Positions 1-29,622 of a stretch of DNA of 64,000 nt are shown here, in pieces. The stretch lies in assembly GCA_964016885.1 (NCBI GenBank), contig OZ024747.1:79732001-79796000 (forward strand). The letters run 5' to 3'. A program made the translations under genes and the position numbers. This stretch comes from Eledone cirrhosa (Eukaryota). The notes under the pieces were generated by a model that had not been told where the DNA came from, made no database searches, and saw only the letters and a program-made list of their open reading frames with translations. Position 1 is the first letter of the stretch, and the number at the start of each line of letters is the position of its first letter.

Positions 1-6
1 AGATTC

Positions 7-77
7 TTCAAATCTTCGCGGGAAATTTCTCCCACAGGGCGCGTAGAGATACATCCTCTTCTACTGGCGTTGATTGG
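7..77 (-). promoter_or_regulatory. Cell-cycle-type promoter (CCAAT, E2F/CDE, CHR) pointing left out of the window
   Basis: Minus strand reads CCAATC (72-77), then TTTCCCGCG-aaga-TTTGAA (25-7): an E2F/CDE-like site with a 4-nt spacer to a CHR hexamer. Confidence 0.45.
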
Positions 78-633
78 CTGAGCTGAGCCAAATCACGCAC
101 AGAGAATGTATGTGAGCCCGCGGAATGTAGGTCACTACACACACACATATGATAGAAAGAAGAGAGAAAAACGAGACCCTTAGAAACGAATAAGAGTCAT
201 CAAAGCGATCATATGTATTGCTTTAAACTGTAATGCGAAGGGATACACTAGTATTTGAGGTACTATCATTTGGGATTTTAACCCTCGGACTTTTCCCTCC
301 CGGTTTTGAAATTTAGGGGTGACTAGGAATATTACATAATGTAGGGATTTTCTATCATTTCTTATTTATATATTTATTTATCTACTCTCGTGATTGATAT
401 TCCGACAAATGGGGTGTATTTTGGTTTTTTATTATGTCATGTATAGCATCCAAAAAATTTCTCCCTTCCCCCAATATATATATATATATATATATATATA
501 CAAACACAGTGTCCCCAAAAATGTATACACACTTCAACAGCAAAGTAATCAAAGTGTGTATATATTTTGGAGGGGACACCGTGTGTATATATATATATGT
601 GTGTGTGTGTATGTGTAAAAACGCAGCGGTATA

Positions 634-845
634 TTCTAATTTGGCCCTTTTAAGGGCCACCTATATTTTCATTTAAGTAACTCAACTTACATCTCTATGC
701 TTTAATTAAAAAAATATAAAAAACGCGTGAAAAAAAAATTTTTTTCATTTAAGTAACTCCACTTACGCGTGGTAGTAATACGGAAATAAACGATGTTTTG
801 CTTTCATCGGCTGCTTCGACTGACAGCTAATAGCATTGTAGTGCC
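634..845 (-). mobile_element. Merlin-like non-autonomous DNA element, one end, carrying a histone 3' stem-loop
   Basis: Reverse complement from 845 is GGCACTACAATGCTATTAGCTGTCAGTC...AACATCGTTTATTTCCGTATTACTACCACGCGTAAGTGGAGTT, homologous to 21213-21325. Flanked by ACCATCCG (846-853). Confidence 0.7.
643..658 (+). terminator. Orphan histone mRNA 3' stem-loop
   Basis: GGCCCT-TTTA-AGGGCC followed by ACCTATATTTTCATTTAAGT, as after the H4 stem-loop; no histone ORF upstream. Confidence 0.8.
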
Positions 846-2069
846 ACCATCCGATGTGATGAAACTGAGAAGAAAAAAGAAGACGGTTAGAGAATGAAAA
901 CTCTTGTCTAACGGAAAAAAGAACGAAGCTAGAAAATTCATTTTCTAAAGACGAGGAACTATCGCCGTGTGGAAGCATTTCTTCACCATTTTATCAACAT
1001 AAGAATCCTTTCAGAAGAAACAGTTTCACTCCAGTCCGTTCCATACATCCTTCATCAGCAACACACAAGGTACAACTCACTCGAAAACAACCTCCATCAG
1101 ACTTTTCGACGCTTTAGATATTTCTGAGGTAAGGGAAATTATTATTTATGGGGGCACCCTTTTTTTTAATGATTATTATAGCTTTGCCTTTCATCCTTGC
1201 GGTGTCGATAAAATAAAGTACCAGTAATGCACTGGGGTCGATTCAATCGACTTTCCCAATCTCCAAAGTTGCTGGCCTTGTGCCTTAAGTAGAAACATAA
1301 TTATCAAGCAAGGGATAATAATTGTTTCTACTTTTGGCACAAGGCCAGCAAACAACCAGTGTATTACTGGTACTTTATTGTATCGACCTGGCAGTATTAG
1401 TAGTGTTGGGCAAAATGTTTAGTTAGAAATTACTACGTTACCCCCGTCAAGGTTAGCCTTGCCTTTTATCCTTCCTGGGTCGATAAAATAAAGTGCCAGT
1501 GAAATACAGAGGTCGATATAATTGACTTTAGTCAATATTAAAAATAATTATTACCCCACATACCACGGGTCAAGATTTAGGACTGGCTATGGTTAAGTTT
1601 TAATTCTTTATATTTAAATTTCGGTTTGTCTTCTAGTTATACAGTAAAATTTAACCTGAAGCTCTCTATATATCTGATATTCCGACATACCTTATGGGGT
1701 CGATAAAATAAAGTACCAGTAATACACTGAGTAATTGCTGGCCTTGTGCCAAAAGTAGAAACAATTATTTATTCATAACATCAGCAAAATTTCGGTAAAT
1801 TTATAATTTAAAAAAGCACCAACTAGTGTTTTAGTTTTCAACAAATCTCAGCTCAAACTTATTTAGATTCGAAAGTTTTTTACGAATAGGCTATGTAGCC
1901 CGTAAACCCCAAAAGGACGCAACACACATCGCTATAGTGTTTCACCAGCCCCTTCATTCATATAAGTGTATGTAATAATTATTTTGTATGTGTCTATGAA
2001 TATGTATGAGATGTGTGTTTGTGTGTGTATGGGTTTCACTTCTGTTGTCTGTATATGTTTATGTATTGA

Positions 2070-3134
2070 CGTGTAGATGTGTGTGTATGTAACTCAGTAG
2101 ATGTGTGTGTGTGTATGTAACTCAGTAGATGTGTGTGTATGTAACTCAGTAGATGTGTGTGTAGGTAACTCAGTAGATGTGTGTGTATGTAACACAGTAG
2201 ATGTGTGTGTGTGTAACTCAGTAGATGTGTGTGTGTGTAATACAGATGTGTGTGTATGTTACTCAGTAGATGTGTGTGTATGTAACTCAGTAGATGTGTG
2301 TGTGTATGTAACTCAGTAGATGTGTGTGTGTGTATGTAACTCAGTAGATGTGTGTGTGTATGTAACACAGTAGATGTGTGTGTATGTAACTCAGTAGATG
2401 TGTGTGTATATGTAACTCAGTAGATGTGTGTGTGTGTATGTAACACAGTAGATGTGTGTGTATGTAACTCAGTAGATGTGTGTGTGTATGTAACTCAGTA
2501 GATGTCTGTGTATGTAACACAGTAGATGTGTGTGTGTATGTAACTCAGTAGATGTGTGTGTATGTAACTCAGTAAATGTGTGTGTGTATGTAACTCAGTA
2601 GATGTGTGTGTGTATGTAACTCAGTAGATGTGTGTGTATGTAACTCAGTAGATGTGTGTGTGTATGTAACACAGTAGATGTGTGTGTGTATGTAACTCAG
2701 TAGATGTGTGTGTATGTAACTCAGTAGATGTGTGTGTCTATGTAACTCAGTAGATGTGTGTGTGTATGTAACTCAGTAGATGTGTGTGTATGTAACTCAG
2801 TAGATGTGTGTGTGTGTATGTAACTCAGTAGATGTGTGTGTGTATGTAACTCAGTAGATGTGTGTATGTAACTCAGTAGATGTGTGTGTATGTAACTCAG
2901 TAGATGTGTGTGTGTATGTAACTCAGTAGATGTGTGTGTGTATGTAACACAGTAGATGTGTGTGTGTATGTAACTCAGTAGATGTGTGTGTGTATGTAAC
3001 TCAGTAGATATGTGTGTATGTAACTCAGTAGATGTGTGTATGTAACTCAGTAGATGTGTGTGTATGTAACTCAGTAGATGTGTGTGTATGTAACTCAGTA
3101 GATATGTGTGTATGTAACTCAGTAGATGTGTGTG
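2070..3134. repeat. Minisatellite, about 22-28 bp unit GTAGAT(GT)nATGTAACTCA
   Basis: About 40 tandem units that vary in GT number. Confidence 0.95.
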
Positions 3135-4533
3135 AATCATCATCATCATCATCATCATCATTTCATTTTACGTCCACTTTTTCCCTGCTTGCAAGGGTGG
3201 GACGGGAACTGATTCTGGCTTGATTTCTACAGCTGGATGCCCTTCCTAACACCAACCTCATTTACAGTGAGTGCTGGGTGCTTTTTTGCCGTGGCACCTC
3301 CACGACCACTTTGCAGTGGAATGATAGGGACCAGACCCCAGTCCCTATCATCTCATTTCTACAGCTGAGTAAACTGGAGCAATGTGAAATAAAGTGTCTT
3401 GCTCAAGGAAACAACACATCACCCAGTCTGAGAATTGAACTCACAATGGTTTTACTTGTTTTGTTAACAATTGATGGTGGAAAAGATTTCAAATTGTCTT
3501 AACTCAGACCGTAAAAGGTCGCAACTCGTGGTGTCTGACACTCTTATCAGCTACATAGGGTGCTTTAGTTTTCAACAATCTATCATTATTGTTCGGTGAA
3601 GTTATATTTAATCTAACGACTTTCTTTCCTTATAAATTATATTTATTACATGCATGAAAAAACCTGGAAAAGAAAAATATTCCCACCAAAGGAAACCCAG
3701 TGCCCCACCCCCCACGCTCGCCTCAGTTTTCGGGTGTGGGGGTCGATTGTGAATGAGTTGAGGTCAGATTTGTTGAAAACTAGAACACCAATGAGTGCTT
3801 ATATGTATAACGGAATACTCCTATATTTTACCAATACTCCTATATTTTACCGGCGAAGAGTCGAAACCGAATCTGGGCTTTCCCGCCTCTGGGACACTCA
3901 ATCGTTGGAAGTTCTCGCCTTTGGCCTTTGTTCTGTCAACGATGATGGATGACATTCCATTTGAACTGTGACCCCAACATCCTTGGGAGATGCTAACCAC
4001 AGGTCAGATCATATATCCATCCTTCTAACTTAGCACTTATAAATACAAGGACTGAGGGAACAAAAGCAGAATCGAATCAACAGTCAAGAAGATAACTGTG
4101 TGGCATCAGTAGACCTTTCACCCTACCTTTCTCCTGGCCCTCACTGGCTTACTCTCTCAGCCAGACAGCCAGTCATGCCTGCCTGAGAGATTGACCATTA
4201 CTACTATGAGAATAAGATAAACTAAGAATAGGCACGCACACACACAGTAAGTTCATACTGTTATATTATACTCTCATCCTATTCTTCCTGCCATATTGTA
4301 TCTGCAAGACACAACCCAACTTATATATTATATCGTCTTCTCTGATACATACATTTACATAGCTCGTAGCAGCTACCAATTTATTTTACGGATATATTTG
4401 TGTCATAAATTCTATCATTCGATATTCAAATTGAATATTGTTATTATAAAATAAACATTAACTCAGTCATGGCATTATTCTTTTCATCAAAACCATCATA
4501 CCAACAAAACAACCATTCCGTTACATATATATA

Positions 4534-7424
4534 TAATAATAATAATAATGAAATAATAATAATAATAATGAAATTATTGTGTAAAGTGCTCAGGTGCACT
4601 ACAACTCGTCAAAGGTGTATGCATAGTACATATAATAATACACAAATGTCAGGGAAGTACATGTGTGTATGTGTTAGCTGTAGTGTTGGCAGATCTCGGG
4701 AAGCATGGAGGCCTTAAAGGGTGCAGTGTCTCGACAGCTAACAACTGATGCAGGTAGTTTGTTCCATGCTTCAGCAACTCTGAGCGTGAAAAAATGTTTC
4801 AGAAAGTCATGGGAACTGTGCTGTTTTCTTACTTTGTGGGCATGTCCACGTGTGTCAGACACATGGAAATCAGAAAGGTACTCAGGGTTGTTGTTGGCAA
4901 CATGGATAACAATTTTGTGGGTGTTTACCAAGTCAGTTGCCAGGCGTCGGAGCTTCAATGAATCCATGCCCAGGGAAGCAAGGCGCTCAGAGTATGGTAG
5001 ATGCCTGATGGAGGGTATTCGCTTGGTTGCACATCTCTGAACAGTTTCCAGGCGGTCAATGTCCTGAGCAAGATAGGGGTTCCAGACTGGTGATGCAAAT
5101 TCTAAGTGTGGTCGCACCATAGCTGTATACAGCCTTAAATAGATATCTGGAGAGCGGCTGACAAAGGTCTTGCTGAGTGATGCTAAGACACCCTCGGCCC
5201 TCTTGACAATTTTAGAGACGTGCCTCGTCCAACGCAAATCGCTGCTGACCGTAATGCCCAGGTCACGTTCACAGGAAGACTTCTTGATATTAGTGCTGTG
5301 GAGGGAGTATGTGGACGCTGAGTTTTTACTCCCAAAATGCATGGTGGTGCACTTGTCCACAGCTAACTTGAGTTGCCAGTCTGAGATCCATTGTTGCATT
5401 GTGTCCAGGTCAGACTGCAAGCAAGATCTATAGTGTTCAGGATCTGTCCTTTTTATCTCAAGGTACAGCTTGATGTCGTCTGCGTACTTTAGTACTGTGG
5501 CATTCCTTAAGTTGGCATCTATGTCATTAATATATGCCACAAACAAAAGGGGGCCAAGAACAGATCCCTGTGGTACACCAGATGACATCTCATATGGTGA
5601 GGAATGCTGTCCCAGAACCGTGACTACCTCTCTTCGACTGAGAATGAAGGACTTCAACCAGTTAAAAAGATCATCCTTCACACCCATTGCAGAGAGTTTT
5701 GCCATAAGCCTTTTGTGTGGCACAGAATTGAAGGCCTTCGCAAAGTCAAGGTAAACAACATCCACCCATGAGCCGCCATCAGTGATCCGGGTGATGTCCT
5801 CAAGAAACTCTATAAGTTGATCACAGCAGCTGGAGTTGGGGATAAATCCAAATTGCGAGGGCCGGATAAGACTGTGAGAGCTCCAGAAGTTCCAAAGTGT
5901 TTCTCTGACACAGGATTCCATCAGTTTGGCGATGCAACTAGTAAGACTGACTGGACGATAGTTCACAGGTGATGTGCGGTCACCCTTTTTGAACAGAGGA
6001 ATGACACTGGCAGTTTTCCACTGTTCTGGAGTAGCACTGTTGTTCAGACAGAATTGGAAGAAGCGTGATAACTGGTGTAGAAGGAAGTATCCACCACGTT
6101 TAAGAAGCAGGTACGTAACACCATCAAGACCAGGAGAGGCATGGTTGCGTTTCTTTTTTAGGTGACATCGCAGCATTGCAGGTGTAAATTCCATGGTTGT
6201 AATAGAGTCCGGTGTCATAGGTGGTGGAGATGGTACACTCTGGTCTTCAATAGTGAAAATGCCTGCATAGCATTCAGCAATGAGCTCTGCGCATTCCTTG
6301 GGGTCGTCAGTAACCTGGCTTGTGTGGGGATTGCGGAGAGGACCAACTGGAGAGTGAGGCCTCTGCTTTGAGTGAACATACTTCCAGAACACCTTACTGT
6401 CAGGGCTGGTTGCTATGCGCTGCTCAAATTGAAGCACTGCCTTTTTTGTCACCTGTTTGAGGTGGTTGGACGATCTATTTCACCTCTTCCTATTAATGTC
6501 TGATTTGTGAAGTTTGTACTCGCATTCAGCATTGCGCCGTTCTTTTCTGGCAAGACGGACTGCTGCAGTCTCCCAAATTGCACTTTTGGGATGTTTTTTC
6601 CGCTTACATGGCACCGATGCTGCACATGCTGTCCATATTGAGCTCAGGATGTTCTGGAGTACAGTGTTGACATCTCCAGAGTCGTAGAACTCAAGCCAGT
6701 TTGGCCGTTGCAACTCGGTGCAGTAACAGTTCCAGTCTGCTTTATTCCAGTCAAAGTGAGCAGTTTGGAGATGGTTGTGCTTCTTGTTACTGCCCATGAG
6801 GGATAGATTGGCAATGATCATAGCATGATCAGAGTCACCTAAAGGTTCCTCAGCAGTAACACTAATGACCGTTTCAGGAGTAGTGGTGAAGAGTAGGTCC
6901 AAAGTGTTGTCACCTCTCGTTGGGGAGGTGACCACCTGGGACCAACTCGAGTCCAGCACTAGCTCAAGGAAGTCATTTGCACTTGGCGGCCAACGAAAGG
7001 TTTCCCAGTCAATCTCAGGGTGATTGAAGTCACCTGCAATGAAAACATAAGTGGCTGTCTTCCTGGCAGCAGCTCTGAGGATATCACAAAGTTGAGTGTC
7101 CTGATGGTAATTTGGGGGACGGTAAACGACTCCAAGTAGCAGTGTTGACATGGTCATACGTATATCGCAGAAAAAAACTTCCTGCTGTGATTGGTTCAAA
7201 TCAGCACAAGGAATTGCCGACAGATTTGACCGAACGTAGACCATTACACCACCACGACGATTAATGCGGTCTTTACGAAACAGGTTGAGGCCAGTCATGC
7301 TGAAAACCCCATCACAGAGTAAGGGATGTGCCCAAGTTTCCGTGACTGTAATGAAGTCAGGGTTGATACTTTTGACGTAGGAGTCAAAAAGGTGAATCTT
7401 ATTGCATAGACTACGTGCATTCAA
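4534..7424 (-). mobile_element. CR1-clade LINE, 5'-truncated, ORF2 (APE endonuclease + reverse transcriptase) with one in-frame TGA
   Basis: ORFs 6480-7424 (NARSL, ITVTETW, GDFNHP, LDLLF, SDH) and 4674-6452 (YLDFAKAF, GVPQGSVLGP, YADD) are in the same frame; (ATT)n tail at about 4534-4575. Confidence 0.93.
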
Positions 7425-7427
7425 TAT

Positions 7428-7462
<35 letters not shown>

Positions 7463-8152
7463 GATAATATATATATATATGATAATAAACAAATAAGACA
7501 GTTACTTTTATTCCATCCCTATTTTATTATACATATTTCAAAGATGTATTGCTTATGTATAGCATCAGTGAAACATGTACTCATCAGATAAAATTCACCA
7601 ACTTTCTCTTTTAGAGATGTTATAATAGTATATTAAATATCAAATCATACATCATCATCATCATCATCATACGTCCGCAATTCACCAAGTGCGACAATTG
7701 ACTGTACCTCTAAGTGTTTAACTAAACACTTAGAGGCAAGCCAACATGCTCGCAGCATTACCATGGGTGATGGCGAGGTTAAGGTGCTGAAATAATCAAG
7801 CATCATCTTACATCTAATGAGAAATATGTAAGAAAACAAAAATATATTTTGTTTAACCCTTTAGCATTTAAACTGGCCGTACCTGACCAGAATTCTCTCA
7901 CCTCTGGGAAGGAAAGCTGTGCTAGAGAAATCACATCTAACTAAAAATGATAACCTGATGTTTGCTTGTGGCAACTATTACGTCTGCTTTCTATGCTGAC
8001 ATGGACTGGGCTGATAATCAGTTTGAGGCATGACATAATTCAGACACCTGCCTATGGATGAACAGTCGATTAGGTGTGAAACAAGCAACCACCTATATTT
8101 CTCTGTGTACAAAAAGAATAACAATGTTCACATTATTTACAGCAAGACTGTA

Positions 8153-8355
8153 TTAACCCTTTAGCATTTAAACCAGCCAGAATTTTCTCACCTCTTTCTG
8201 TTCAAACTGGCTATAACAGGTTGCTCATACTGATGTTAATTCTCAAAATAAATATCAAAATCTCATAGATTCAATATTATGTGAGATAATTATGTGAATT
8301 AAAGCCTTTACAATACAATAGTAAATATAGAGTAATGCAAAAGATAAAGGGTTAA
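8153..8355. mobile_element. piggyBac-like MITE, representative copy (others about 7854, 12539, 13035, 14430, 32421, 42595, 42898, 49020, 51661, 57619)
   Basis: TTAA-CCCTTTAGCATTT...AAAGGG-TTAA termini and a shared internal sequence. Confidence 0.8.
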
Positions 8356-9782
8356 AAATGTCTTATATATCATTTTTACATTACAGCTGAAGAAAGTCAA
8401 AGATAACAGGAGTGATTCTGTGAGAAATGGCCCCAAATCTGACGGTGTGAAAACAAAAGAAAACAGCCCTAATGAAGATTCCAGGAATAAGGTTGGCATT
8501 CCTGTCTATTTCTAACTTCCTAAGGACATCATTATCATCACCGTTTTACGTCCGTTCTTCCATGCTAGCATGGGTTAGACAAGTTGTCCTGTTGTGGGCA
8601 GTAGTCGGTCGGCTGACCTTGTCTTGCTCATACAGGAACTGATTCTGGCTTGATTTCTACAGCTGGATGCCCTTCCTAACACTAACCTCATTTACAGTGA
8701 GTGCTGGGTGCTTCTTTTTTTTTTTTTTTTTCCGTGGTGCCTACACGTCCACTTTACAGTGTGGGCTGGGTGCTTTTTTACCATGGCACCTCCACGACCA
8801 CTTTGCAGTGGAATGATAGGGACCCCAGTCCTATCATCTCATTTCTACAGCTGAGTAAACTGGAGCAATGTGAAATAAAGTGTCTTGCTCAAGGAAACAA
8901 CACATCACCTGGTCCGAGAATTGAACTCACAACCTTTCGATTGCACTAAGCCATGCGCCTTCATCTAGAAATGTTTTAGTTTAAATATCAATATATTGAG
9001 GGTATTTTGACTTTTTATTTATGTTAACCCTTTAGTTACCAACACGGCCAAAACATTTACTGGTTCACCACTGGATAGAACTGGTAATTCTGTATAGTTA
9101 ACTATGATGTAATAGTGGGAAAAGCACTGTTATGTAACTCATCCATCTTTGATGGCCATTGAAGTACTTACAGTAATAAAAATTTGAAGGAATTTCACAT
9201 GTCCGGCCTACTGTCATTTTACTCTATAATATATATATATATAAAAATCCGAATGGATGCAGTAAAAACCAGTTAGACCAGAGTATTCGATACTTGGGGT
9301 AGTAGAGTGTGGTAATATGAAAAAATCCGGGCCCGACGGCTGAGCTCTTGCTGTTTCAACAGCTAGATCCGACACACCTTCTTAACAATGTACCGTTTAT
9401 TTTGAATTGAGATTTTGGGGTCTAGTAGATGATTGACATGCTGAGTTTTCACATATTTTTGTAAGAAAACTTGCACCTTTACATGAATGTATGTGGTGAG
9501 GATAGACAACGGCCAAAGTACCTTGTCGTGGAACTGAACCCAAATTCTTATGATTGGTTTCCAAGCCAAGTTCTTAACCAAATAACCCAGGTATGATTTA
9601 CTGTGTTCCTGCTGTGAGCCAGGCTCCCAAACTGTGGTTTCGCACCTATCTCTCATAGTGTCATCATCCAGTATCGGGCCCCCTAAACTATAGTTACACT
9701 GTGATATGGGTTCTGCACAGCTAACTGGCCTGTCTCTTCTTATGGCGGTGCCATCCAATACTGGGCAATGAAACTATGGCTA

Positions 9783-10628
9783 TGCTGTGAGGTGGGTCAG
9801 TCTCCTTGTATCGGTACTTTCTAGTAATGGGCTGCTGTGAGGTGGGTCAGTCTCCTTGTATCGGTACCTTCTAGTACTGGGCTGCAGTGAGATGTCAGAC
9901 TCCTCATATCGGTACCTTCTAGTACTGGGCTGCTGTGAGGTGGGTCAGTCTCCTTGTATCGGTACCTTCTAGTACTGGGCTGCAGTGAGATGTCAGACTC
10001 CTCGTATCGGTACCTTTCATTACTGGGCTGCTGTGAGGTGGGTCAGTCTCCTTGTATCGGTACCTTCTAGTACTGGGCTGCAGTGAGATGTCAGACTCCT
10101 CGTATCGGTACCTTTCATTACTGGGCTGCTGTGAGGTGGGTCAGTCTCCTTGTATCGGTACCTTCTAGTACTGGGCTGCAGTGAGATGTCAGACTCCTCA
10201 TATCGGTACCTTCTAGTACTGGGCTGCTGTGAGGTGGGTCAGTCTCCTTGTATCGGTACCTTCTAGTACTGGGCTGCAGTGAGATGTCAGACTCCTCATA
10301 TCGGTACCTTCTAGTACTGGGCTGCTGTGAGGTGGGTCAGTCTCCTTGTATCGGTACCTTCTAGTACTGGGCTGCAGTGAGATGTCAGACTCCTCGTATC
10401 GGTACCTTTCATTACTGGGCTGCTGTGAGGTGGGTCAGTCTCCTTGTATCGGTACCTTCTAGTACTGGGCTGCAGTGAGATGTCAGACTCCTCGTATCGG
10501 TACCTTTCATTACTGGGCTGCTGTGAGGTGGGTCAGTCTCCTTGTATCGGTACCTTCTAGTACTGGGCTGCAGTGAGATGTCAGACTCCTCGTATCGGTA
10601 CCTTCCAGTACTGGGCTGCTGTGAGATG
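9783..10628. repeat. Tandem repeat with a 98-bp dimer of related 50-bp and 48-bp subunits
   Basis: GGGCTGCTGTGAGGTGGGTCAG... alternates with GGGCTGCAGTGAGATGTCAG...; about 8.5 dimers. Confidence 0.95.
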
Positions 10629-11176
10629 GTTCTGTTATGAGAGGGGTTCGGTGCTTTCTGCTGGCCTGTCCCTCCTCATGATGGAGCCATCCAGTCACAC
10701 TGTTAAAAAACCTGGCTAAGTTTACAGTCCTCGTCGGAGCAAGGTGCGACATGGCCATGCTTGGTTCCCGGCATGGAAGAATTGACGCTAAATGGAAATG
10801 GGGATGATGATCTTATATGCATTCTTTCTCTTCCCTTTGCAGGTGTGGCTAAAAAGGAGGATCTTCAAGCTTTACCTGTTGATTGGAGTTTGAAACAGAA
10901 GATGCGATTTATCTGTAATTTCTCATCATTTGATTGGTGTAAAAACTTACGTACATCTGAAGAAGCTGAAGATGTGAGCAGTTATTTAGCAAATCAACTC
11001 CCTGAAACAACACCACCATCTTTCACAAATGTTAGTAGGTCTCCCTTCAAGAAAGGCTGTTTATTATCTATTGTTCTTGAGTGATGTCATTATTTATAAT
11101 ACAACAAACCTGTCATCGAAAACATTACCGATCTTCTCGGAAGTCTATCTACTGCTACTATTTCTATTACTGTTAA

Positions 11177-11365
11177 GGGTGGTGTATTGGCAGTATCGGT
11201 AGAGGGTCGGGCGCCATGCTTTCCAGCATAGTTCCTTTATGGTCTCAGTTCAAATCCCACAGACGTTAACTTTGCCTTTCATCCTTACCAGGGTCGATAA
11301 AATAAAGTACCAGTATTGCACTGGGGGGTAATTGCTGGCCTTGTGCCAAAAGTAGAAACTACTAC
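11177..11365 (+). mobile_element. tRNA-derived SINE, octopod-type; more than 20 copies or fragments in the window (e.g. 19730, 27262, 36624, 41400, 43021, 44214, 46975, 53655, 54150, 57050, 59195)
   Basis: A-box TGGCAGTATCGG, B-box GTTCAAATCC, conserved core GCCTTTCATCCTTAC..GGTCGATAAAATAAAGTACCAGT, 3' GCTGGCCTTGTGCC..AAGTAGAAAC. Confidence 0.85.
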
Positions 11366-14039
11366 TATTTCTGTTACTACTACTGCTGCTACTATCCAAT
11401 ATGTCCATTTTTTTTCTTATTTAAGACAAGGGCAGGATTCCCCAACCTGGAGTGGGTAGGGTCTGAGCTAAGTAGTGCAATGTTAATCCACAATTAGTGG
11501 TACTGCTTAACCACCAATTAACAAATGAACCCCATTGCTGACAAAACAGCACCCCCCTCTCTCAATATATATATATTAATAATAGTAATAATAATAAATT
11601 TGAAGACTAAAATCCAAAGGGGGCTCGATAAGAATAAATATATATAAAATATATAAGTTTGATATATATCAAATATATAGTTTCAGAAGATCCCGTTAAG
11701 GGTGAAAGCAGCGATTCTTTACTTAAACTTTAATCTGTTATTTTAATAAATATATATGTATATATATACGTATATGTATATAATCATCATTTTACGTCCG
11801 CTTTCCCCTGCATGCAAGGGTGGGACTGGTCCTCTTCAACACAACATCTCTCAATTTGTTACAGTCCTTCATCTCCTTTAAGGTCAGCTCTCACCACCTC
11901 CGCCCATGTCTTCCTCTATTGCATCTTCCTTCCACTGGGATTATATATATATATATATTTTATATTTTAGTTGAAGGCACTTCCAGAGAGTTCTTGGCGA
12001 TCCCGTTTTCACAGAGAATGTTTGTACTGGTAATGATAAATACACATATATCATCATCATACGTCTATTTCCCATGCTTGCTTGTGTTAGACAGGTTGTC
12101 TTGCTCATACAGAACTGTTTCTAGCTTGGTTTCAACAGCTGGATGCTCTTCCTAATGCCAACACATTACAGCATAGACTGGGTATTTTTTGTCATGTCAC
12201 CTGCCCAACCAGCTTATAGGGTGGACTGGGTGTTTTTTGTTGTCACCAGCACAACCACCTTTACTGGGTGCTTGTGTATATTTTGTTTTTTGAATTTAAT
12301 TTTGAGTTGTTTTATTTTATATATCTTTTCACTACCAGGGATCCAATTCAAGATGCCATTTAATCCAAAACACTCGGAACGGCTATCCTTAGAATCCAAT
12401 GACTCGGGTAATGGAAGCCAAAAATCTAGAAATTCCAGGTGAAGAATTGAACATAATGGGCTCAACATCTGAAATAGAGGCAAAGAAATGGGTGGAATTA
12501 TGTAGCATTCTTTCCTTTCTGCTGACCAATTAGTAACTTAACCCTTTACCATTTAAACTGGCCATAACCAACTGCTCATACTTATGTTAAGGTATTGTTC
12601 TCAAAATAAATATCAAAATCTCATAGATTCAATATTATGTGAAATAAACTGTTCACTAAAAATACAATAGTAAATATAGAGTAATGTAAATGCTAAAGGA
12701 TTAACCCATTTCATACCAAACTGCTCATGGTTTTGTAACAAAGCTGTTTATTTTAAAGTGTTTATATTTATCTAACAACCTGCCATTGTTGTTTGACATC
12801 AGAACCTATGTTTCAAATACCACCTTAATAAGAACATTACTTATATTACTAACTTCCTTCAAATTCTTGATTATTTTCAAAAAGATTTCTAAATTATAGT
12901 TAATCACTTATTAGAAATATGGTAATGAAAGTTTAGGCTTTCCTGAAAATTCACCATTTTCCTCATTACTTTACATCCAGTTTCCATTTTGCCATTAATT
13001 GGACAGTTTATCACAATCCTAATTAGTTCTTATTTAACCCTTTATCACTTACATTACTCTATATATAATATTATATTTTCATGGTAAAGGCTTTACCTTA
13101 CATAATATCAAATTTATGAGAATTTGATATTATTTTAAGAACAATACCTTAACATCAGTATCAGTGGACAGTTTGAACAGAAAGAGGTGAGAAAATTCGA
13201 GCTGGATATGGCCAGTTTAAATGCTAAAGGGTTAAAGTTGTGTTGCATGTATATAGATCAGCGGTTCCCAACCTTTTATAATAAATTCCACCTTAATGAT
13301 ATAACAAAACAGTATGGCATCCAAAAAATTAAAATTTTTGATATAATTTTTTTATGTAGAAATAATTTTGGCATGTCTTTTTATTTGTGAAGTAAAATCA
13401 TAATTAGAAAAGGTAGAAAGTTGATAAAAAGTTGAATATAAAAATTTAAAGCAAGAAAAAGAAAAAATTATGTGAGGAAACTACTCTTCTTTTTTATGTA
13501 TAAAATTTTGTGATTTTTAGTTAATTCCCGTGGCTCCCCCAATAACTTGCTATGGCCCCCTGGTTGGGAACCAATGATATAGATAGATATACACTATGGG
13601 CATTCACACATTTTCTGTCTACCAAATTTTACTCACATGAACTCCTTAACCACACCACTATGGCTCTGCCTATATTTCATATAGTGATACCTGAACGCTG
13701 TTTATTTATTTCTCTCTTTTTTATCACCTAAAATCTGTTTTTTATTTGCAGCATCAGTTCACAGAATTCATTGAGTGAAGAACAAGATTGCCGTGGTGGT
13801 GATGATGATGAACATGATGGGGAAGCTGATTTGTTTGAAGAGGAGGAAAGCACTAGCCTGACTTGCAACACGGAAGAGACACACTGCAAAAATTTACAAC
13901 CAAATAAACAAGTGGAAGGTGAGGAGTATGAAGAGGAGGAAGATGGTTTCACAGCAGACGAAGGTGCTGCTGTGTGGTTAGAAAGTATCGGGCTTGATAA
14001 GAAGAATTTCCCTTCTTTGAATCCCAATAAAGTTCGACT

Positions 14040-14048
14040 GTATCCTTT
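14040..14048 (+). other. U12-type (minor spliceosome) 5' splice site
   Basis: GTATCCTTT directly after the DONSON exon ending ...NPNKVRL. Confidence 0.8.
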
Positions 14049-14899
14049 TCTTTTACGATGTGTGTGTGTGTGTGAATTTCGTATATCTAAAGATATACGT
14101 TATGTTTAATAAATAAACATTTTGAAAGCTTCGGCTATGAATAGAAGGCCAGCGCCATCTAGTGGAATCCAGCAGATGCAAGGGGGATAATTGTCTATGC
14201 ATTTCAAACTTTAAGGGTTCTCGTCAGGACAGTGCTTCCCTCTGCCGACTGCTGGACTTTGAAGCAGATGTGATACCTTACAGAACTTCTTTCAACCCTC
14301 TGCATTCTCAGCTAGCTTGTGATGACACTGGTGCCATGTATTGGCCCTTATTTCTCCCTTGAACTCATCTGTCTTGTGAATAAGGGAGACTTGTGTACAT
14401 TGGTAACTCCTGGTTTCCACAGAAAATCTTGAGATTTTGATATTACTTATTTTGAGAACAATACCTTAACATCAGTATGAATATCCAGTTACAGCTGATT
14501 TGAACAGAAAGAGGTGAGAGAATTCTTGCTGGATACGGCTGGTTTAAATGCTAAAAGGTTAAGGAGTTCATTTTGTAATCATTTAGTTTTGGGTTCAACC
14601 TCACAGTATGAACCCTTTGGAAAGTGTTTCACTGAAGCCTTGAGTTAACCAATGTCTTGTGGAATTAGGTGACCATGTCTTGCTCATACAGAACTGTTTC
14701 TGGTTTGGTTTCTATGGCTAGATGCCCTTTCTAACGGCAACCACATTTACAGCATAGTCTGCATGCTTTTTATTGTGGCATCAAAACAACCAGGTTGGAC
14801 TGCGTACCTTTTCAACATGTCACCAATATCACCATTTTTCAGGGTGGACTATATATATATATATATATATACTAGCCCACCCGTGACTCGTTGGATCAC

Positions 14900-15650
14900 G
14901 TTCACTGGAAAAGTAATTTTTAAATAACACTTCATCAACCACGTGCAGTTCTCTGGCTACAACCAAAGAGACAGAATCAGCGTATACAAAAAAGCCACAG
15001 AGAAATATAAAATCCTCATAGAAATGGACATGAAGGTAATTTGCCCATTATACGAGAGCAAATCATGGAATAGTTTAGATAGGACTAAACATAAGATAGG
15101 GAAAGCCACTTCATGGTACGACAACCAGAAATACGAGATTGTTATGTTCGTGGATGGTACCCCAGGAGGGAAATTAACAAAGCAATGTAGAAAGGCCCCA
15201 AGAAAGACCCATCTAAAGATTAAAGTGGTAGAAAAGCCAGAAACTACCATAAAAACCCTGATCAGAAAAACATACCCCTTTAAGAAAACCCACTGTACGA
15301 ATAAGAAATGTGTTATATGTAGAATAAACCCTCAAATAAATTGTAAAACTAGAAATGTAGTCTACACCATAAAATATACAGAGGGCACTTTCAGAAACAT
15401 AACAATGACATACATAGGTGAGACAGCTCGAAGCATAGGAGAAATAATAGACCAACATTGGGGGGAACTAAAAGGACAAAAAAAAAAAACGGTTCAGAAC
15501 TATATGAACACGCCAGACAAAGACATGGTGGTAATATAGACAACATAGAAATTAAAATAATATCTAAACATAGAAATGACTCAACAGGTAGGTAAATCAG
15601 AGAAGCAACTGAGATAGAACTAAGAAGACCGAAATTGGACAGAAAGAACG
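14900..15650 (+). mobile_element. Penelope-like element fragment (RT C-terminus/linker + GIY-YIG endonuclease)
   Basis: ORF 14943-15539 with C..C..C..C, then NVVYTI...YIGETARS. Confidence 0.85.
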
Positions 15651-16883
15651 AATGGAATAACAACAACAACCATACCCAAACAAACAATATTGACTTAAAT
15701 GAAATATAAATAAATAAATAAATAAATACACAAGTACAATAACAACAAACACATAAACACACACTAGTGAACAAAGATACAATACAAAAACAAAAACACA
15801 TACACTCAAACGCTAACACACACATGCAAACGCATGCGCAGAGAAGAATAAATAAATAAAGAACGAAAATAAAAATGGCGTAGACATTACAATACAATGG
15901 GAGGAAACATAATAGTACCACTGACGATGATAAACATTGATTGCCAAATAAATTAACTATGGAGATATAAAAGATACAGAAGCGAAAACCAACCCAAACC
16001 AAACAGTGAATGTGTTCTGTTACTATCTCTGGCAATATTATAACAATATGACCCTCCCCACCCAAGTATAATAATATTTGTTTCAACACACGATTTCATA
16101 TCAAAAACCTTGCAAAACATATATATATATATATATATATTTAATACATTAACAGAGAAAGCTTTAAGCAATACTCCGACCGGCTTCTGTCTCACTCAAC
16201 AAACATTAGGATATACCTTAGTATAATCCCAATTATACGTTTGGGGTGCTAACTATACGTATTTTGCGGATAGCCAGTTGTATTATTTAATATGAGACAT
16301 AATTAAAATACATCTCTCTTTCCAAACGATCGTTTCATTATAAGTTTTCTACAAATTGGGAAAATAATGTCCAGGTTATGTAGAAGCCTACACATAGTCC
16401 GTAGGAATATATGTAGGTGGGCACTTATAAATCATCAGTGGATGCCTGACAAATATCGATAAAAAAAATCTTACCGATATTAACGTTCAGCGATGGTACC
16501 CCTCCGTGCCAGAATGACCGCCAAATTTGAAATTCCAGTAATCTCACACTGCCATCAAGCGGAAAGGGAAGGTCATCGCAAAACATAAACAAATAAAATA
16601 ATATGCACGCGGGTCAATTAATTCTTTCAATAATTTTAACCATGCGTGAAGAACTCAATTGGATATAAGCATATATTATTTATACACGTATATAGGTATT
16701 TTCTTAGGCTAAAAACAGAGATAAGATACCGGAAGAACAATCAATATTTCATACAAAGAATAAATACGAAAAGTCATACCTAAAAAGTATCTGGAAATAT
16801 TCATCCCTGGCCAAATCAAGAGTATAATATTTAATACATTAACAGAGAAAGCTTTATAGTTATGTAATAAACAACATAAGATA

Positions 16884-16947
16884 ATTCATTTACCAGTGGT
16901 TTCTTGAAGACAGATATTTATATCTGTCTTCAGTCGTCAGAACGAAT
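16884..16947 (-). ncRNA. Type I hammerhead ribozyme motif
   Basis: Minus strand: AUUCGUU-CUGACGA-c-UGAAGACAGAUAU-aa-AUAUCUGUCUUCA-a-GAAA-CCAcUGG-UA-AAUGAAU. Confidence 0.7.
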
Positions 16948-18859
16948 AATATATATATATATATATATATATACAAAAATTCTTCTTCACCCACTTATTC
17001 CTGAGAGGGGTGTATGTCGTGTGTGTGTTGAGGGTGTCGTGTGTGTATGTATGTGTGATTGTGTGTGTCGTGTGTGTTTGGTAAGCTGACAAACAGTTTT
17101 CCCCACTTCGTGTTCTGACCACACTAAGACAATTACTAAACCTGTATTTCCCACTCTACAGTCCACACTCATCCATGCCAAATCATATGACATGTCATAA
17201 CCCCATACAATCTTTAACACAGTGCAACATAGATGTTTAGGTGTTTATTTATTAATTATAAAACTGTGATCCTTAAAGTTTCTGAGGTCTCCCTAGTTGG
17301 CCTTAATGGTAGCAGCGGCCCTAACCTTAGATGGATGCAAATGTTGATAACTAGGGAGTAGGATGGATTTAGGTACCCCTAAAATGACGTGATAATCAAA
17401 TGGGATGTCTTTTACTCATATACCTTGTTAACCTGGATCTAAACCAGAGATGGGGAACCATAGGCCTTCTATGCCATTCTGTGCAGCCCTTTATGAAAGT
17501 TTCCAACAATTTTTTTATTTTAATATGTTTTTGTCTATCTCTTATTATTTCAATTTAAACCACTTGTTGCTGTGAACCAACATTCTCCTACCTAACCAAA
17601 ATCATGACACCTTTGAGATTACAAATGGTGGTTGCCCATCTAGAGGTTCAGTTGAAACTTCAGACTTCCATACTGCAACCAAATATCAATTTGCTTTCCT
17701 ACAACAAAGTAATTAAAACCTTTAAAACTGATTTTTTTTTTTTGTTTGATTTTTTCGATAACTAGTACATAGTAATTAGATTTTTACAAAATAATGTAGA
17801 TTTTAAGAATATGTAATTACGGTTTCTTGAATGCAGCCTTATTATATTACAAGTAACTTAATGTGGCCTTTTTAGAAACGGTTCCCCACCTCTTGTCTAA
17901 ACAATAACTAGCTTAGTGATTTTCAGCATTTCCACTACTAAGGACCCCTTTTTATTTAAATGGATTTTCCCATGGCCCACACATAACAATTATTCCCCTG
18001 CCAGAGTAACAGTTGAAAGAGAGAAATGATTAGACCGTAAAAAAAGAATGGATACTCAACAGCGTGTGTGTATATTATGTCAATTGAAAGTTTGAACTTA
18101 GCTCACAGATCCCTAATACTACATTTGAGGACCCCATGGTTCCGCCGACCACAGTATGGGAACAGCTAAACTATCCCAACATTTTAAATAACTATTTTAA
18201 GTGCCAACACTTCTCTCTGTAAAAAGCAACTTTTATAAGGGAGATAATTAAATATATATTATTAATACAATTGCCGAGATTTACTTGAATAAATAAAGCG
18301 TTATGTTTATAAATGCGATTAATATTTTATAGGATTGTGTTTTTACCTATATAAATTGCTTTGAATTTAGTGAATTTTGATAAAAGGCTCATAAGAAATG
18401 TTATTTTTATGAATTAAACATTTGATCTTATTTTGAAATTTTGATAGCAGTTATTCCCCTTGTTGAAGCTGTCTTGTTTAGATTAAATTAATCATAATTG
18501 TATGTCTTGCGGAACTCCATGATTCCAGGGAACACCGGTTGAGTGGATTGGCAGTATCGGTAGAGCGTCGGACAGCATGGAGTTATGGCCCTTTACGTTC
18601 TGAGTTCAAATCCCGCCTAGCCTTTGAGGACTCTTCCCTAACGATTCTCCCAAGAAGAAGTAACGTATTGTATCAATGAAATCGACTTTTTCCTCCCCAC
18701 AAATTGCTGGCCTGGTGCCTAAATGACATTTTTATTTACAGAAATATTTATATAAAGCAATAAGGAAATGAAGAATAGAAGAAAAAGAAAAGAAATGAAG
18801 AAATTAAAGAACGAATGGAAAGGATAGGGAGCAACAGATGCTACACCTTTATCTCAGCG

Positions 18860-19230
18860 GTATCTTTCAGCTTCCTCCTGTAGACAAAATGGCGAAAGCA
18901 TCGCCTCGTAGAACGGCCAGTGATTCCGACTGCAACATCATCCACTCCGTCTCATGGGACTCCTCCCTTGGGAAGACTGCTGTTTTTTTCGATTTTGCGA
19001 AAGAAATGGCAGTTCGGTGACTTAGATCAACTCAATTCTCGACGGTAAATCCCTATTCCGAGATGCCACGTGTTGCGTCACGTTCTCCGCCTCTAGCCTT
19101 GTTGTTTCGGCTGCAAACCTAGACATTATCGTTTGCAGAAGAGGAGAAAACTGCCAAATACCGGGGTTTCACTGTCCGCTTCTTTTCCACGTTGGATGCT
19201 GTTGAGACTTCAGGTGTCCTAAGAGCCTAA
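18860..19230. mobile_element. Degenerate CRE-clade retrotransposon 3' fragment with internal inversion
   Basis: Plus strand about 19041-19230: DGKSLFRDATC...AEEEKTAKYR...AVETSGVL. Minus strand about 19020-18868: ...EWMMLQSESLAVLRGDAFAILSTG. Both align to ORF 58022-58798. Confidence 0.75.
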
Positions 19231-19246
19231 ATTAGAAATCATTGTA

Positions 19247-19479
19247 CAGGGTGACCACAAAAACACTCCTTGATATCAAATACTTATATGGAAACTTAAA
19301 TGAATATTCTTACAATATTGGTGGCTACAGTTGCATAAACTAACAAAGTTTCATGTGGTATTGGTTGATATCATAGACACTCTATTGCCTCTATTGTTGA
19401 TTGGCAAACATCTATGCGATAATCACGTAGGTTTTGATAGAACTATTTGAAATCAATGAGTGTTTTTGTGGTCACTCTG
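19247..19479. mobile_element. Tc1/mariner-type MITE
   Basis: TA-CAGGGTGACCACAAAAACACTC...GAGTGTTTTTGTGGTCACTCTG-TA. Confidence 0.85.
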
Positions 19480-20017
19480 TATCTTATATTACTAGTGTAT
19501 CTATGTCCTAAAAAGTGCTAATTTTTCTGGGGACTGTGTTGGCAGTGGCAAACATTGGTGGGCTATTTAATATAGACGAGATACTCATTATTTCCATCGC
19601 TCTTAAAATCTGTGTCGATGTATGCAGAGTGATGGAATGGAGTATCGATGTGGGGAGGATGGTCGCTAAATAGTTGTGAACTTTTTTTTTTACCTTTTAT
19701 TATTGATTTCTACCTTTTATTGATCTGTTAGTATCGGTAGAGGGTCGGACGCCATGGTTTGACGCATAGAGTTACGGCCCTTGCTATTCTGAGTTCAAAT
19801 CCCGCCGAAGTTAACCCCTTACGGGGTCGATAAAATAAAGTACCAGTAATAAACTGGAATAATTGCTGGCCTTGTGCCAAAAGTAGAAACAATTATTTAT
19901 ATCAAAATGTTAGCTGCTAAAAGCTGTGATTTGCAGAGATTTGCTATTTCTAGAAGATCAAAAGACTACTCAATGAGTTCCGGGCGTTGAAAAACAAAGG
20001 GAGATAACTTCCACCAG

Positions 20018-20128
20018 TGACGTCATTCTGTTTCGCGCGAAAATTTAGTTATATTATTGTCGCTGCCTTGTTATGTTGGCAGTTTGAAAATATATTCAAA
20101 ATATATAATCGTCGCACCTAAGGTAAGA
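20018..20128 (+). promoter_or_regulatory. Probable DONSON promoter and non-coding first exon
   Basis: CRE/ATF site TGACGTCA (20018-20025), palindromic E2F site TTTCGCGCGAAA (20031-20042), donor AG|GTAAGA at 20122; about 1.05 kb upstream of the DONSON ATG. Confidence 0.55.
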
Positions 20129-20159
20129 AAACATCACTGAATCATCACTTTCGAGCTAA

Positions 20160-20899
20160 GGCGATATCCAATTTTAGCTGTCTAAATGCCGCTTAGTTGC
20201 TGCTTACTTCAATGTATGAGGCTATTCCAACAGATTTACATTCCCCCTTTTTTTAGCCGTTAAAAAAAATATAGATTTATTTATTTTTATTTGTTTGCGA
20301 TTTATTTGCCACTGGGGCATAGATTTCTTTATTTGCCCCTTTTTTGTTTGTTTGTTTTTTTGCAATTTATTAGCCTTTTGGGGTCACACACTCCCCCGTA
20401 GAAAGTGTGCGACCTTTCTGCCAGGGAGCACAGAGAGAGGGGGGTGCTCCCTTCTTCTCTTACCTGTACAAGCCGATATAGAGAGATGGCCCACTTACAC
20501 GGGCCATTATTGCTACTTTCACCCATCTTTCATGGAATTGGCTGGGACTGAGTGCCTTTTTCGGGTGAAAGTAGCAATAATGGCCCGTGTAAGTGGGCCA
20601 TCTCTCTATATCGGCTTGTACAGGTAAGAGAAGAAGGGAGCACCCCGCTCTCTCTGTACCCCCTGGCAGAAAGGTCGCACACTTTCTACGGGGGTGTGTG
20701 TGACCCCAAAAGGCTAATAAATCGCCAAAAAACAAACAAACAAAAAAGGGGCAAATAAATCGCATAAAAAAAAAATAAATAAATCTATATTTCTTTTAAC
20801 GGCTAAAAAAAAGGGGAATGTAAACTTGTTGGAATAGCCTCATACATTGAAGTAAGCAGCAACTAAGCGGCATTTAGACAGCTAAAATTGGATACCGCC
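20160..20899. mobile_element. Foldback MITE, GGC termini, 8-bp target duplication (Merlin-like)
   Basis: Inverted arms about 20160-20525 and 20563-20899; flanks CGAGCTAA / CGAACTAA. Confidence 0.85.
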
Positions 20900-21175
20900 C
20901 GAACTAATATAGAACATACATTTATAACTTTGAAACTTAAAAAATGATATATTTATTTCAATATGTATAAGGATGCTACCTTACGATTATTTATTTTACA
21001 TTAATTATCAGCGAACTTCTGTAGAATATATTTATATATGTATATTTGAATATTTATAAGCAATAAATAATTGTATCTACTTTAGGCACATGGCCAGCAA
21101 TTACCTAGTGCATTACTGGTACTTTATTTTATCGACCCCGTAAGGATGAAAGGCAAAGTCAACCTCGGCGGGATA

Positions 21176-21212
21176 ATGACGGACACATCGCCCACTTGGA
21201 AGAAACCATCCG
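21176..21212 (+). pseudogene. DONSON: Displaced DONSON start (MTDTSPTWKKPS)
   Basis: Joined to 846 onward through ACCATCCG it reads MTDTSPTWKKPSDVMKLRRK, resembling the vertebrate DONSON N-terminus SPGFRKPPEVVRLRRK (recalled, not searched). Confidence 0.8.
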
Positions 21213-21378
21213 GGCACTACAACGCTATGAGCTGTCAGTCCAGTGGAAAACAAGCGAAGGTGACGTCACTCGTCAACATCGTTTATTTCCGTATTACTAC
21301 CACGCGTAAGTGGAGTTTTCACGCGGTTTTTTGAGAGAGAGGGGGAAGACTTAAAAGGGCCAAATTAGAAAACAAGTC

Positions 21379-22432
21379 GGCATACGTCAAAACGGCCGGC
21401 CGCAAAAGTGAAACTAATTTTTGACAGTTACGTACGTCATTATTTTAATTTTGGATTGTGAAATTGTTTGATTTTATGCCTATATATATATATGGTGGCT
21501 GCCAACTCGTTTTCGAGTACGGCCACTACTTTATATCCATGTAGGAGAACCCCTACCGATGCGCTAAACAAGTGTGACTTTTAGTCCAGCCAGCGACTTG
21601 AAAACTCTGGTACAAACACTACACCTGTGACAATTATTGACACATAGTGTTGGGCCTTTGGTACCATGTGACGACAAGTGTAGAGAGATCTCCAGATATA
21701 AAGCAATGCCTGTGCCGTGAAGCTTTTATAGTGAGCAAAGGCACTGCACAAAGCCAGTCCCACTCTCTTAACCCAAGATGATATTTACCAAAAAGAAGAA
21801 TAAGTCAACATCATTGGATACCATCAGGGTTGCAGGTGTTATATCAGAGTTTTCCTTCTCTTAGAATTCTGCCTTGACAAAGGCTAAGGGGTCATCTCTC
21901 CCGGTGATTTTGGATGGCCATTGACTCTTAAGAGCTCCTTTGCCAGGTTTTGTTTTTAGTCCTGCAGGATGTCCAAAGTCACCCTCCTCACCAAGAAACC
22001 TTGGTGGGGTTGCCAGTTTAGTCGCCAACGACCCGACCATGGGACAGGTTGTACTGGGATACATGTTACCAGTAGCACCAACTGGTGACCTGACATAATA
22101 TATATATATATATGCATACATACATACATATATGTATACATATGCGTATATATATACATACACACATATATATGTATATACACACACACAATATATATGT
22201 ATGTATATACAGACATATATATATGTATATATATATATATATATATATGAAATACTGTTGGCTTCACGCTCACAATTATTTCTATACTTTCATTTATATA
22301 TATATATATATATATATGGCATATATATATTGTAAAAAAACAAACAATTTCACAATCCAAATTGAAAGTAATGACGTACGTAACTGTCAAAAATTAGTTT
22401 CACTTTTGCGACCGGCCGTTTTGACGTATGCC
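21379..22432. mobile_element. Nested TIR element with GGC termini and about 90-bp TIRs
   Basis: GGCATACGTCAAAACGGCC...GGCCGTTTTGACGTATGCC; flanks AACAAGTC / TTACAAGTC. Confidence 0.8.
21560..22095 (-). mobile_element. Interspersed repeat (probable LINE 5' region), homologous to 26121-26520 on the plus strand
   Basis: Shared CCCAGTACAACCTGTC.CATGGTCGGG.CGT.GGCGACTAAACTGGCAACCCCACCAAG. Confidence 0.6.
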
Positions 22433-22494
22433 TTACAAGTCGTGGTTATAAAGCATATCGATGTAAGTGGAGTTACTTAAATGAAAATATAGGT

Positions 22495-22510
22495 GGCCCT
22501 TAAAAGGGCC
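22495..22510 (-). terminator. Orphan histone mRNA 3' stem-loop, second copy
   Basis: Reverse complement GGCCCTTTTAAGGGCC-ACCTATATTTTCATTTAAGT. Confidence 0.8.
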
Positions 22511-22665
22511 AAATTAGAAAACAAATTTAAGTTAATTAGAAAACAAGTCATGGTTATCAATGTAGAAAACAAGTCATTCATAAATTTAAGTTTTATAATC
22601 AAATTTTTTTCACAATAGCGTTGTAGTGCCCGCAATTCTGTATCTTTACGTATATTGTGCATAGA

Positions 22666-22950
22666 TACGAGGGTTGACAAAGATACTCTCATGGAATGTG
22701 ACCAAATGAGGTTTATTTTTCAACATAGTCTCCCTTGCGTTCCACACACTTCTTCCATCGGTGTTGCAGTACTGAGATCAATGTTTTCCTCGGCAGTGGC
22801 AGTTGTAGGACGTCCAGACATTGGGTCATCTTCAAGAATCCCCTATCTTTCCTAAATTTGGCTGCCCACTTTTGCACAAAGGAAAATTGTGGTACAATAT
22901 TGTAAGGTCTGCTTATACCCTTATCCATCTTTCAAAAATGAAGGTCCACA
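22666..22950 (-). mobile_element. Mariner transposon remnant
   Basis: TA-CGAGGG terminus; degenerate HTH segment VQKWAAKFR...EDDP.SGRPTTATAEENID. Confidence 0.7.
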
Positions 22951-23639
22951 TTTCGTCGACTTCAATACATTTTATTACATTTTATTCTATTGTAAACATT
23001 AACTTTTATGGAAATTTTATTACAAAATTTCAATTTAGTTCGATTTTTTGCAATTTATTTAACAAACATGGAAAAATAAGAAAAAGAATAAAATAAAAAA
23101 TAATTTGATTGCCTTTAATAAAGAAGATAAATAGGGTGGAACTGATTTCCAGGTCATACTAATGAAACAAGGTTTTTTCCATTACTGATATTATCTGTCT
23201 GCCCCAAGTCCTGGTAGAAGATGCTACACGAACTAAAGTATTTTACTGAAGGACGCAACATGCTGCAGGATCGAAGAAACGAGCCCATGACTTTATAATG
23301 GTTAGTCCAGTACCGTAACCCCTAAGGCATGTGCCTTCACAGAGGAAAGGTAAATCATATTATAACAGATTAGATGGGTACTATGTTAGATATTACTATG
23401 TGTCATATTATACCAAAGAGGAAGTGTGCTGTATAATAAACATTGATATCAGGTTGATTCAATAACTACCCGGTCCCAAATATGAACCATGAACTTATGG
23501 TCGTCAGTCAAACACTTTAACCATTGTATGTATGTATACACGTATGGATGTATGTATGTGTGTATACATGTATGGATGGATGGATGGATGTATCTATGCA
23601 TGTATGTATACATGAATATATGTAAGTATGTATGCGTGT

Positions 23640-26685: not shown

Positions 26686-26717
<32 letters not shown>

Positions 26718-28545: not shown

Positions 28546-28561
28546 GGCCCTGAAAAGGGCC
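28546..28561 (-). terminator. H4 3' stem-loop
   Basis: GGCCCT-TTTC-AGGGCC-ACC. Confidence 0.95.
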
Positions 28562-28589
28562 GGTGACATGAGGCTAAAAGATATTTAGC

Positions 28590-29593
<1,004 letters not shown>

Positions 29594-29622
29594 GATGTTA
29601 CAACTTTAAAACATCATAAAAT

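Follow-up and report, generated by a model that had tools for sequence, protein, structure and literature searches.

We analysed a window of 64,000 nucleotides from Eledone cirrhosa (contig OZ024747.1, positions 79,732,001 to 79,796,000 of the forward strand), numbered here from its first letter, that lies within a histone cluster and holds both halves, right and left, of a single giant, non-autonomous type of Merlin DNA transposon. Each half carries a 36-base module with a histone-type stem-loop, at 643-678 (+) and at 22510-22475 (-), which is a single loop base (A versus C) away from the 3' end of the histone H4 gene in the same window (28561-28526). A weaker likeness continues beyond the module (82% between 28495-28561 of the H4 and 22447-22510). 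A preliminary description of this DNA had noticed these matches together with a half hairpin near 21351 and a common orientation of the two stem-loops; all were found again, with the half hairpin placed at 21350-21361 (-) and both hairpins directed toward a GCTGTCAGT-type end. Each element copy scores 34.0 bits with the Rfam Histone3 model (RF00032), exactly at the gathering score of 34.0, compared with 39.7 bits for the hairpin of the window H4. The exact 36-mer occurs 502 times genome-wide (3.0 Gb) whereas its reversed control occurs 0 times, and cassette-bearing copies are bounded by distinct 8-bp target-site duplications (TSDs). Chance, or the decay of a histone cluster to two local remnants, would suit the position of the window within such a cluster, but 502 copies against none in the control, distinct TSDs and a linked transposase leave this explanation next to no probability. 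A metagenome scan with the module gave 0 matches. The window contains the following features.

1-845, plus strand: right part of the giant non-autonomous Merlin element, matching the right ends of TSD-bounded giants
643-703, plus strand: H4-derived cassette, with the stem-loop at 643-658, then H4 downstream sequence, AAGT at 675-678; its 5' flank is the element-derived AATTT
824-845, minus strand: terminal inverted repeat (TIR; GGCACTACAA... end), outward to the right
846-853, plus strand: TSD ACCATCCG, copy 1, facing inward
846-21212, plus strand: circularly permuted copy of C11:26142000-26158969 plus extra repeat insertions, with the join between 14700 and 14926
21205-21212, plus strand: TSD ACCATCCG, copy 2
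21213-26918, plus strand: left part of an element of this giant type, ending at 26918 where four other copies continue
21213-21234, plus strand: TIR, outward to the left
21350-21361, minus strand: half hairpin made up of just the 5' arm and the loop, fixed at this end type in many copies
21379-22432, no strand assigned: non-autonomous element from a different Merlin family, nested here, with ends GGCATACGTCAAAACGG (the same ends as at locus L095), with an imperfect duplication around ACAAGTC
22448-22510, minus strand: H4-derived cassette, stem-loop at 22510-22495
22615-22630, minus strand: internal former end, outer flank identical in many copies
28526-28901, minus strand: histone H4 gene at 28901-28590, paralogous to the donor, with its 3' stem-loop at 28561-28546
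29183-29638, plus strand: histone H3 gene (29183-29593) and stem-loop (29623-29638)

The preliminary description took the hairpin-bearing stretches for two separate elements, one of them ending at 22615-22630. They are instead halves of one giant element type, and 22615-22630 is not an insertion boundary because the sequence just outside it recurs in many copies; common sequence extends to 26918. On the other side, the shared sequence of the right part reaches ~38 kb upstream of the window. Neither half encodes a transposase, and no transposase start or stop motif was found in the window or in the 60 kb upstream.

In complete giants the 21213-type part comes first and the 845-type end last, and in the window this order is swapped. 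The TSD ACCATCCG stands directly after 845 and directly before 21213, and C11 holds an empty site with one ACCATCCG. Swapped halves and a permuted C11 segment point to a circular intermediate as the likely origin: either a circle derived from C11 would have taken up the element ends, or the element itself would have been carried on a circle, and the circle would then have integrated into the histone cluster on C7. Tandem duplication as the origin of the inward-facing TSD is ruled out, the partner of the segment being the empty site on C11. An assembly artefact is a less likely alternative. In four sequencing runs of unknown kind, short contigs cover the element-to-TSD junction (819-875), though they are below bridging length and possibly come from the assembly's own sample.

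Further sequences lie in the same window. A near-perfect inverted-repeat element at 20160-20899, probably of a further Merlin-type family, is absent from the C11 copy at that place, as are long reverse-transcriptase and endonuclease frames at 4674-7523 (-) inside the permuted segment, which we take to be of the long interspersed element (LINE) kind. Scattered exons at 35264-62891 (-) resemble an organic-ion transporter, presumably of SLC22 type.

The Merlin carrier and the probable source of its hairpin

Module-bearing loci end in GGCACTACAACGCTATTAGCTG, and some of them contain a transposase that matches PF12762 (DDE_Tnp_IS1595) with E 7e-19 and 68.8 bits (cut-off 27). A genome search for this transposase, in which 150 out of 728 candidates were scored, gave at least 153 matches. 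Two loci (L055 and L059) have open frames, of 300 and 302 aa, that contain VEIDES, SDLW and NHIE motifs, whose residues are presumably catalytic. The TIRs start with 5'-GG (GGCACTACAAC... ends, 385 exact 25-mers; variant ends, 168), and many family members have exact TSD pairs of 8-9 bp. GG ends, 8-9 bp TSDs and a DDE_Tnp_IS1595 domain define Merlin as set out in PMC8101967, and because the carrier has all three it is a Merlin (IS1595-type) DNA transposon. The same GG ends, 8-bp TSD and transposase rule out a CACTA identity, to which the motif CACTACAA had pointed. The nearest named proteins are ISXO2-like transposases of Octopus bimaculoides and O. sinensis (63-85%), and dN/dS (the ratio of nonsynonymous to synonymous change) between transposase subfamily majorities is 0.15-0.23. 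Synonymous divergence between the subfamilies (0.16) is far above the non-coding divergence (0-0.06), and the branch of the young lineage is much longer than that of its sister.

Behind the transposase stop codon a sense hairpin is present in 28 of the best 30 transposase matches, four pairs of which are the same or duplicated loci, and it mostly lies 137 nt away. Most of these 30 have a second, antisense copy ~240 nt before the start codon as well, with both hairpins pointing outward. When ends were chosen by their TIR alone, 17/30 had an outward hairpin within 600 nt.

We placed 47 of 51 transposase loci, each with at least 450 aligned nt and some of them duplicates of one locus, in a transposase tree. 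All 36 rows that have a hairpin on either side of the transposase fall in one clade (bootstrap 100/100, a value not fully settled), and the hairpin is found in 0/11 rows outside it; one of the latter, L068, is a simple element of 1.9 kb flanked by an 8-bp TSD. At twenty loci belonging to other Merlin families there was no hairpin beside the transposase and no independent capture; where one such locus (L096) does contain hairpins, these belong to a separate small copy of the hairpin-bearing family.

The preliminary description compared the module with the window H4, but that gene is ruled out as the donor: among 21 H4 matches the closest is the H4 gene at C7:67.46 Mb (locus L035), 97% identical over 64 nt to the cassette at 22448-22510. 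Small copies of the mirror type are collinear with ~340 nt of the 3' flank of this gene, in blocks interrupted by deletions. Other H4 genes have the hairpin and the next 20 nt in common with it and then diverge, and no family element end was found in the 20 kb examined around C7:67.46 Mb, which together argue for transfer from host to element. The proposal that a DNA transposon had captured a histone 3' end thus stands, in that a Merlin transposon carries an H4 3' end and has scattered it over hundreds of sites, where the 8-bp duplications are distinct. Copies of the C18 type that have common flanks are segmental duplicates; dozens of double-hairpin copies with native flanks (L124, L125, L226 and L230-L236, on C18, C27, C28 and unplaced sequence) multiplied inside a larger segmental duplication unit.

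Capture was probably a single event, by template switching. A tendency to land in histone clusters would have given the opportunity, and ~340 nt of H4 3' flank would have entered the element during repair or replication. The flank would then have been mirrored into both arms. Deletions would have shortened it, leaving 63 nt in the lineage with the transposase, and cut-and-paste transposition would have amplified it. Some family copies have half hairpins that are fixed, or junctions that fall within the hairpin, which suggests that the hairpin itself may be a hot spot for template switching.

Other observations concern the element ends. A 16-base word of the end has 79,988 matches, yet just 100 of them lie in the first 392 Mb of C1, and at L164:477-1422 the word stands in tandem units of 87 and 54 bp; a large satellite likely grew out of a Merlin end. 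Different Merlin families often lie within a few kb of each other (for example at C1:144.71, 292.38 and 360.03 Mb), as at shared hot spots.

Giant members and histone clusters

The family includes giant members in the range of 17-48 kb with exact 8-bp TSDs (C1:5550636-5578734, C3:18130166-18178319 and others). End pairs with exact TSDs of at least 8 bp span 28.1, 26.5, 26.7, 28.7, 48.2, 17.2 and ~22 kb; a further giant with an exact TSD measures 23.6 kb, and another pair spans 25.6 kb with an AT run as its TSD, whereas in one pair (L141/L132) the TSDs do not match. In another set of seven copies, three coding giants have exact TSDs, at 48.2 kb (AT-rich TSD, and containing the 300-aa frame), 28.9 kb and 17.2 kb; for the other four no left end was found within range. 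The interiors consist of common repeats and tandem arrays with units of ~800-900 bp, and no viral or polymerase genes were seen among the long frames of six giants, judged by eye. Hairpins are absent from the left ends of these three coding giants within the 170 nt inspected.

Besides the window's own cluster, family pieces lie at 4/15 histone clusters, these 15 being what is left of 23 regions after removal of the window's cluster and of regions with no hairpin-ended histone gene; one of the four (C2:142.16) had already been seen in the module search. Exact family end-words number 14 in 262 kb of histone clusters, in 4/19 regions, against 0.067 expected from the density on C1, a single chromosome, with regions that are not independent. 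Histone clusters also contain members of two further Merlin families that are about as abundant (401 and 572 ends; P about 0.04 each), as well as a copy of the ancestral type with a hairpin-less end, and for these reasons the pull toward histone clusters likely predates the capture.

These distributions bear on a role of the cassette as DNA, in homing to histone loci or as part of a subterminal repeat bound by the transposase. The four clusters and the excess of end-words are what such a role would lead one to expect. However, histone clusters also hold the hairpin-less copy and the two other families, giant ends that lack the cassette have still moved with exact TSDs, and no family piece was seen closer than 10 kb to the donor H4, so that we regard a DNA role as improbable.

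The hairpin as a possible RNA end

We favour the view that the H4 3' end in this Merlin lineage is probably a captured passenger rather than a working mRNA end. A comparison with 48 distinct host histone 3' ends provides much of the evidence. Host ends have A at -3 in 47/48 cases and T at -2 or -3 in 0/48, whereas in the window copies, as in the transposase lineage, the 5' flank reads AATTT in place of the host's adenines. The minimal site of human SLBP includes two 5' adenines (PMC10388802, which cites earlier work for this), and a hairpin that lacks them would be expected to bind SLBP weakly at best. Adenines are kept only in non-coding copies of the mirror type, which have a CAACACC flank, and the CAACACC copies seen have no transposase. 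Folding predicts a seventh base pair in the hairpin. Between stop codon and hairpin an AATAAA is present in 29/33 rows, mostly 67 nt upstream of the hairpin, though it counts as one event because it is shared by descent; the transposase mRNA is probably polyadenylated at this signal. Finally, the distance from stop codon to hairpin is 76-661 nt (mostly 137) in 33 element rows versus 19-114 nt in host genes.

Patterns of decay are also those of a passenger. Among 30 aligned copies (3 were dropped for low score), per-copy changes hit the hairpin at 7/480 positions and the sequence outside it at 45/2709 (P=1.0), similar rates that indicate neutral decay. Between the early and the young subfamily the cassette has 0/63 changes against a synonymous divergence of 0.159, which is no proof of selection because other non-coding blocks have only 14/474 (P=0.39). 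Neither comparison is significant, and so neither shows the conservation above background for which the preliminary description had proposed to test the stem. Many copies have a broken hairpin as a fixed feature, and a hairpin is missing from several giant ends. Flank, seventh pair, upstream AATAAA, spacing, neutral decay and fixed broken hairpins together suggest a passenger and make a function as a histone-type RNA end doubtful.

Several observations weigh against a passenger. The hairpin retains the conserved 6-bp stem, with all six pairs perfect, and the 4-nt loop, in sense and behind a stop codon, and the rule of the 5' adenines derives from human SLBP. The element retains the AGT block that 35/48 host ends have in common (at about +17 to +20), and one deletion in copies of the mirror type begins directly after it. 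Neutral decay of dead copies is uninformative about an active master. In the youngest burst of the tree every row bears a hairpin, and when variant ends were chosen by TIR alone, 25/30 had a hairpin within the element.

The alternative these points favour is that the transposase mRNA has the hairpin as its working 3' end, cut by SLBP and U7 like a histone mRNA. Transposase would then be present only in S phase, the time at which cut-and-paste transposition increases the number of copies, oocyte storage would be allowed, and the upstream mirror copy would end divergent transcripts. Consistent with this, the sense hairpin follows the stop in 33 rows, the Rfam gathering score is attained, the cassette with its AGT block has survived several deletions of the captured flank, and the hairpin clade includes the youngest copies and both intact frames of at least 300 aa that were found. 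Yet the 5' adenines are lost, the copies seen with the native CAACACC flank have no transposase, the added pair, the AATAAA and a spacing outside the host range all depart from a histone end, and conservation is no higher than in other non-coding parts; we therefore hold a working end to be possible but unlikely.

Processing would also involve U7. In the 48 host ends the downstream element resembles AGT at +17 to +20 followed by pyrimidines; that of vertebrates is purine-rich, and U7 may differ here. A search for U7 snRNA scored 65 candidates and gave none over the cut-off of 34 bits; the best (29.7 bits; L102, C3:314686447-314686503, -) has a pyrimidine-rich 5' part and no obvious pairing with the host downstream block.

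The suggestion that the element spreads cell-cycle-coupled terminators finds no support so far. In that case the host would have co-opted dispersed copies to terminate neighbouring genes, for which the 502 exact modules offer raw material and one locus a candidate: at L214:1937-2650 (C7:7.88 Mb) an element lies in sense between the stop codon of an H2A gene and that gene's own, now altered, hairpin. This is the only histone gene seen interrupted by the element, and rescue by the element hairpin is ruled out since the H2A carries two stop codons. With neutral per-copy decay as well, co-option by the host appears very improbable.

In a bolder version of the working end, a hijacked histone 3'-end pathway would have supplied S-phase-only, oocyte-stored transposase mRNA and so caused the youngest burst in a Merlin lineage with a preference for histone clusters and a mobile cargo of 17-48 kb; we judge this likewise possible but unlikely. 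If the hairpin does end the transposase message, no other animal mRNA outside the histones is known to have an end of this type, linked to DNA replication. The transposase gene with its hairpin offers a ready test of a selfish gene borrowing S-phase control, for which the hairpin-less ancestor and the two flank variants are natural controls. Even as a passenger the cassette makes this family a rare example of an animal Pack-TIR at high copy number whose donor and history can be traced, and the same family provides natural cut-and-paste of 17-48 kb by a 300-aa transposase, a pull toward histone clusters and a probably circle-mediated interchromosomal duplication.

Comparison with known systems

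Full-text literature searches returned no transposon with a histone stem-loop in the text they cover; Repbase, Dfam and subscription journals fall outside that coverage, and an unremarked consensus may exist. A paper on O. vulgaris repeats reports 2 recently active Merlin families, and its available text has no 'histone' (PMC13282606). With the Merlin superfamily and IS1595 family (PMC8101967) the element shares TIRs starting with GG, TSDs of 8-9 bp and a single DDE_Tnp_IS1595 transposase of ~300 aa, whereas a histone 3' cassette in both arms and members of 17-48 kb set the present lineage apart; the main text of that paper contains no case of captured cargo or of giant Merlin members.

In size the giants are like Polintons (15-40 kb) and small Teratorns among the giant eukaryotic DNA transposons (PMC6431247), a review whose available text does not name Merlin. 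In contrast to those, their cargo is repeats and tandem arrays, with no viral or polymerase genes seen by eye. The arrangement in the window is like the products described for reversed-ends transposition (PMC3744419), with two reversed ends, one common 8-bp TSD, a permuted segment and a circle; unlike in the available text on that process, the permuted segment here has an unpermuted, empty copy on another chromosome.

Compared with the replication-dependent histone mRNA 3' end (RF00032; SLBP, U7), the cassette has the six-pair stem, a TTTN loop, ACCTA and a host-type AGT block. It differs in lying in an element with no histone frame, in lacking the 5' adenines in the transposase lineage, in its greater distance from the stop codon and in the AATAAA upstream.

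The module is real, dispersed and H4-derived, and its carrier belongs to Merlin and also to the multicopy Pack-TIRs. As in animal multicopy Pack-TIRs (Tan et al. 2021, PMC8277862) and plant Pack-MULEs, a host fragment lies inside a TIR element; as in the animal examples, the donor is unlinked to the element, amplification by transposition followed capture, and the size of the fragment is near their median of 224 bp. The available text of Tan et al. gives four multicopy Pack-TIRs in reference genomes, with few copies each, and leaves Merlin unmentioned. The present family differs from these in having hundreds of copies, in carrying an RNA-processing signal as its cargo and in having done so within a lineage that encodes its own transposase.

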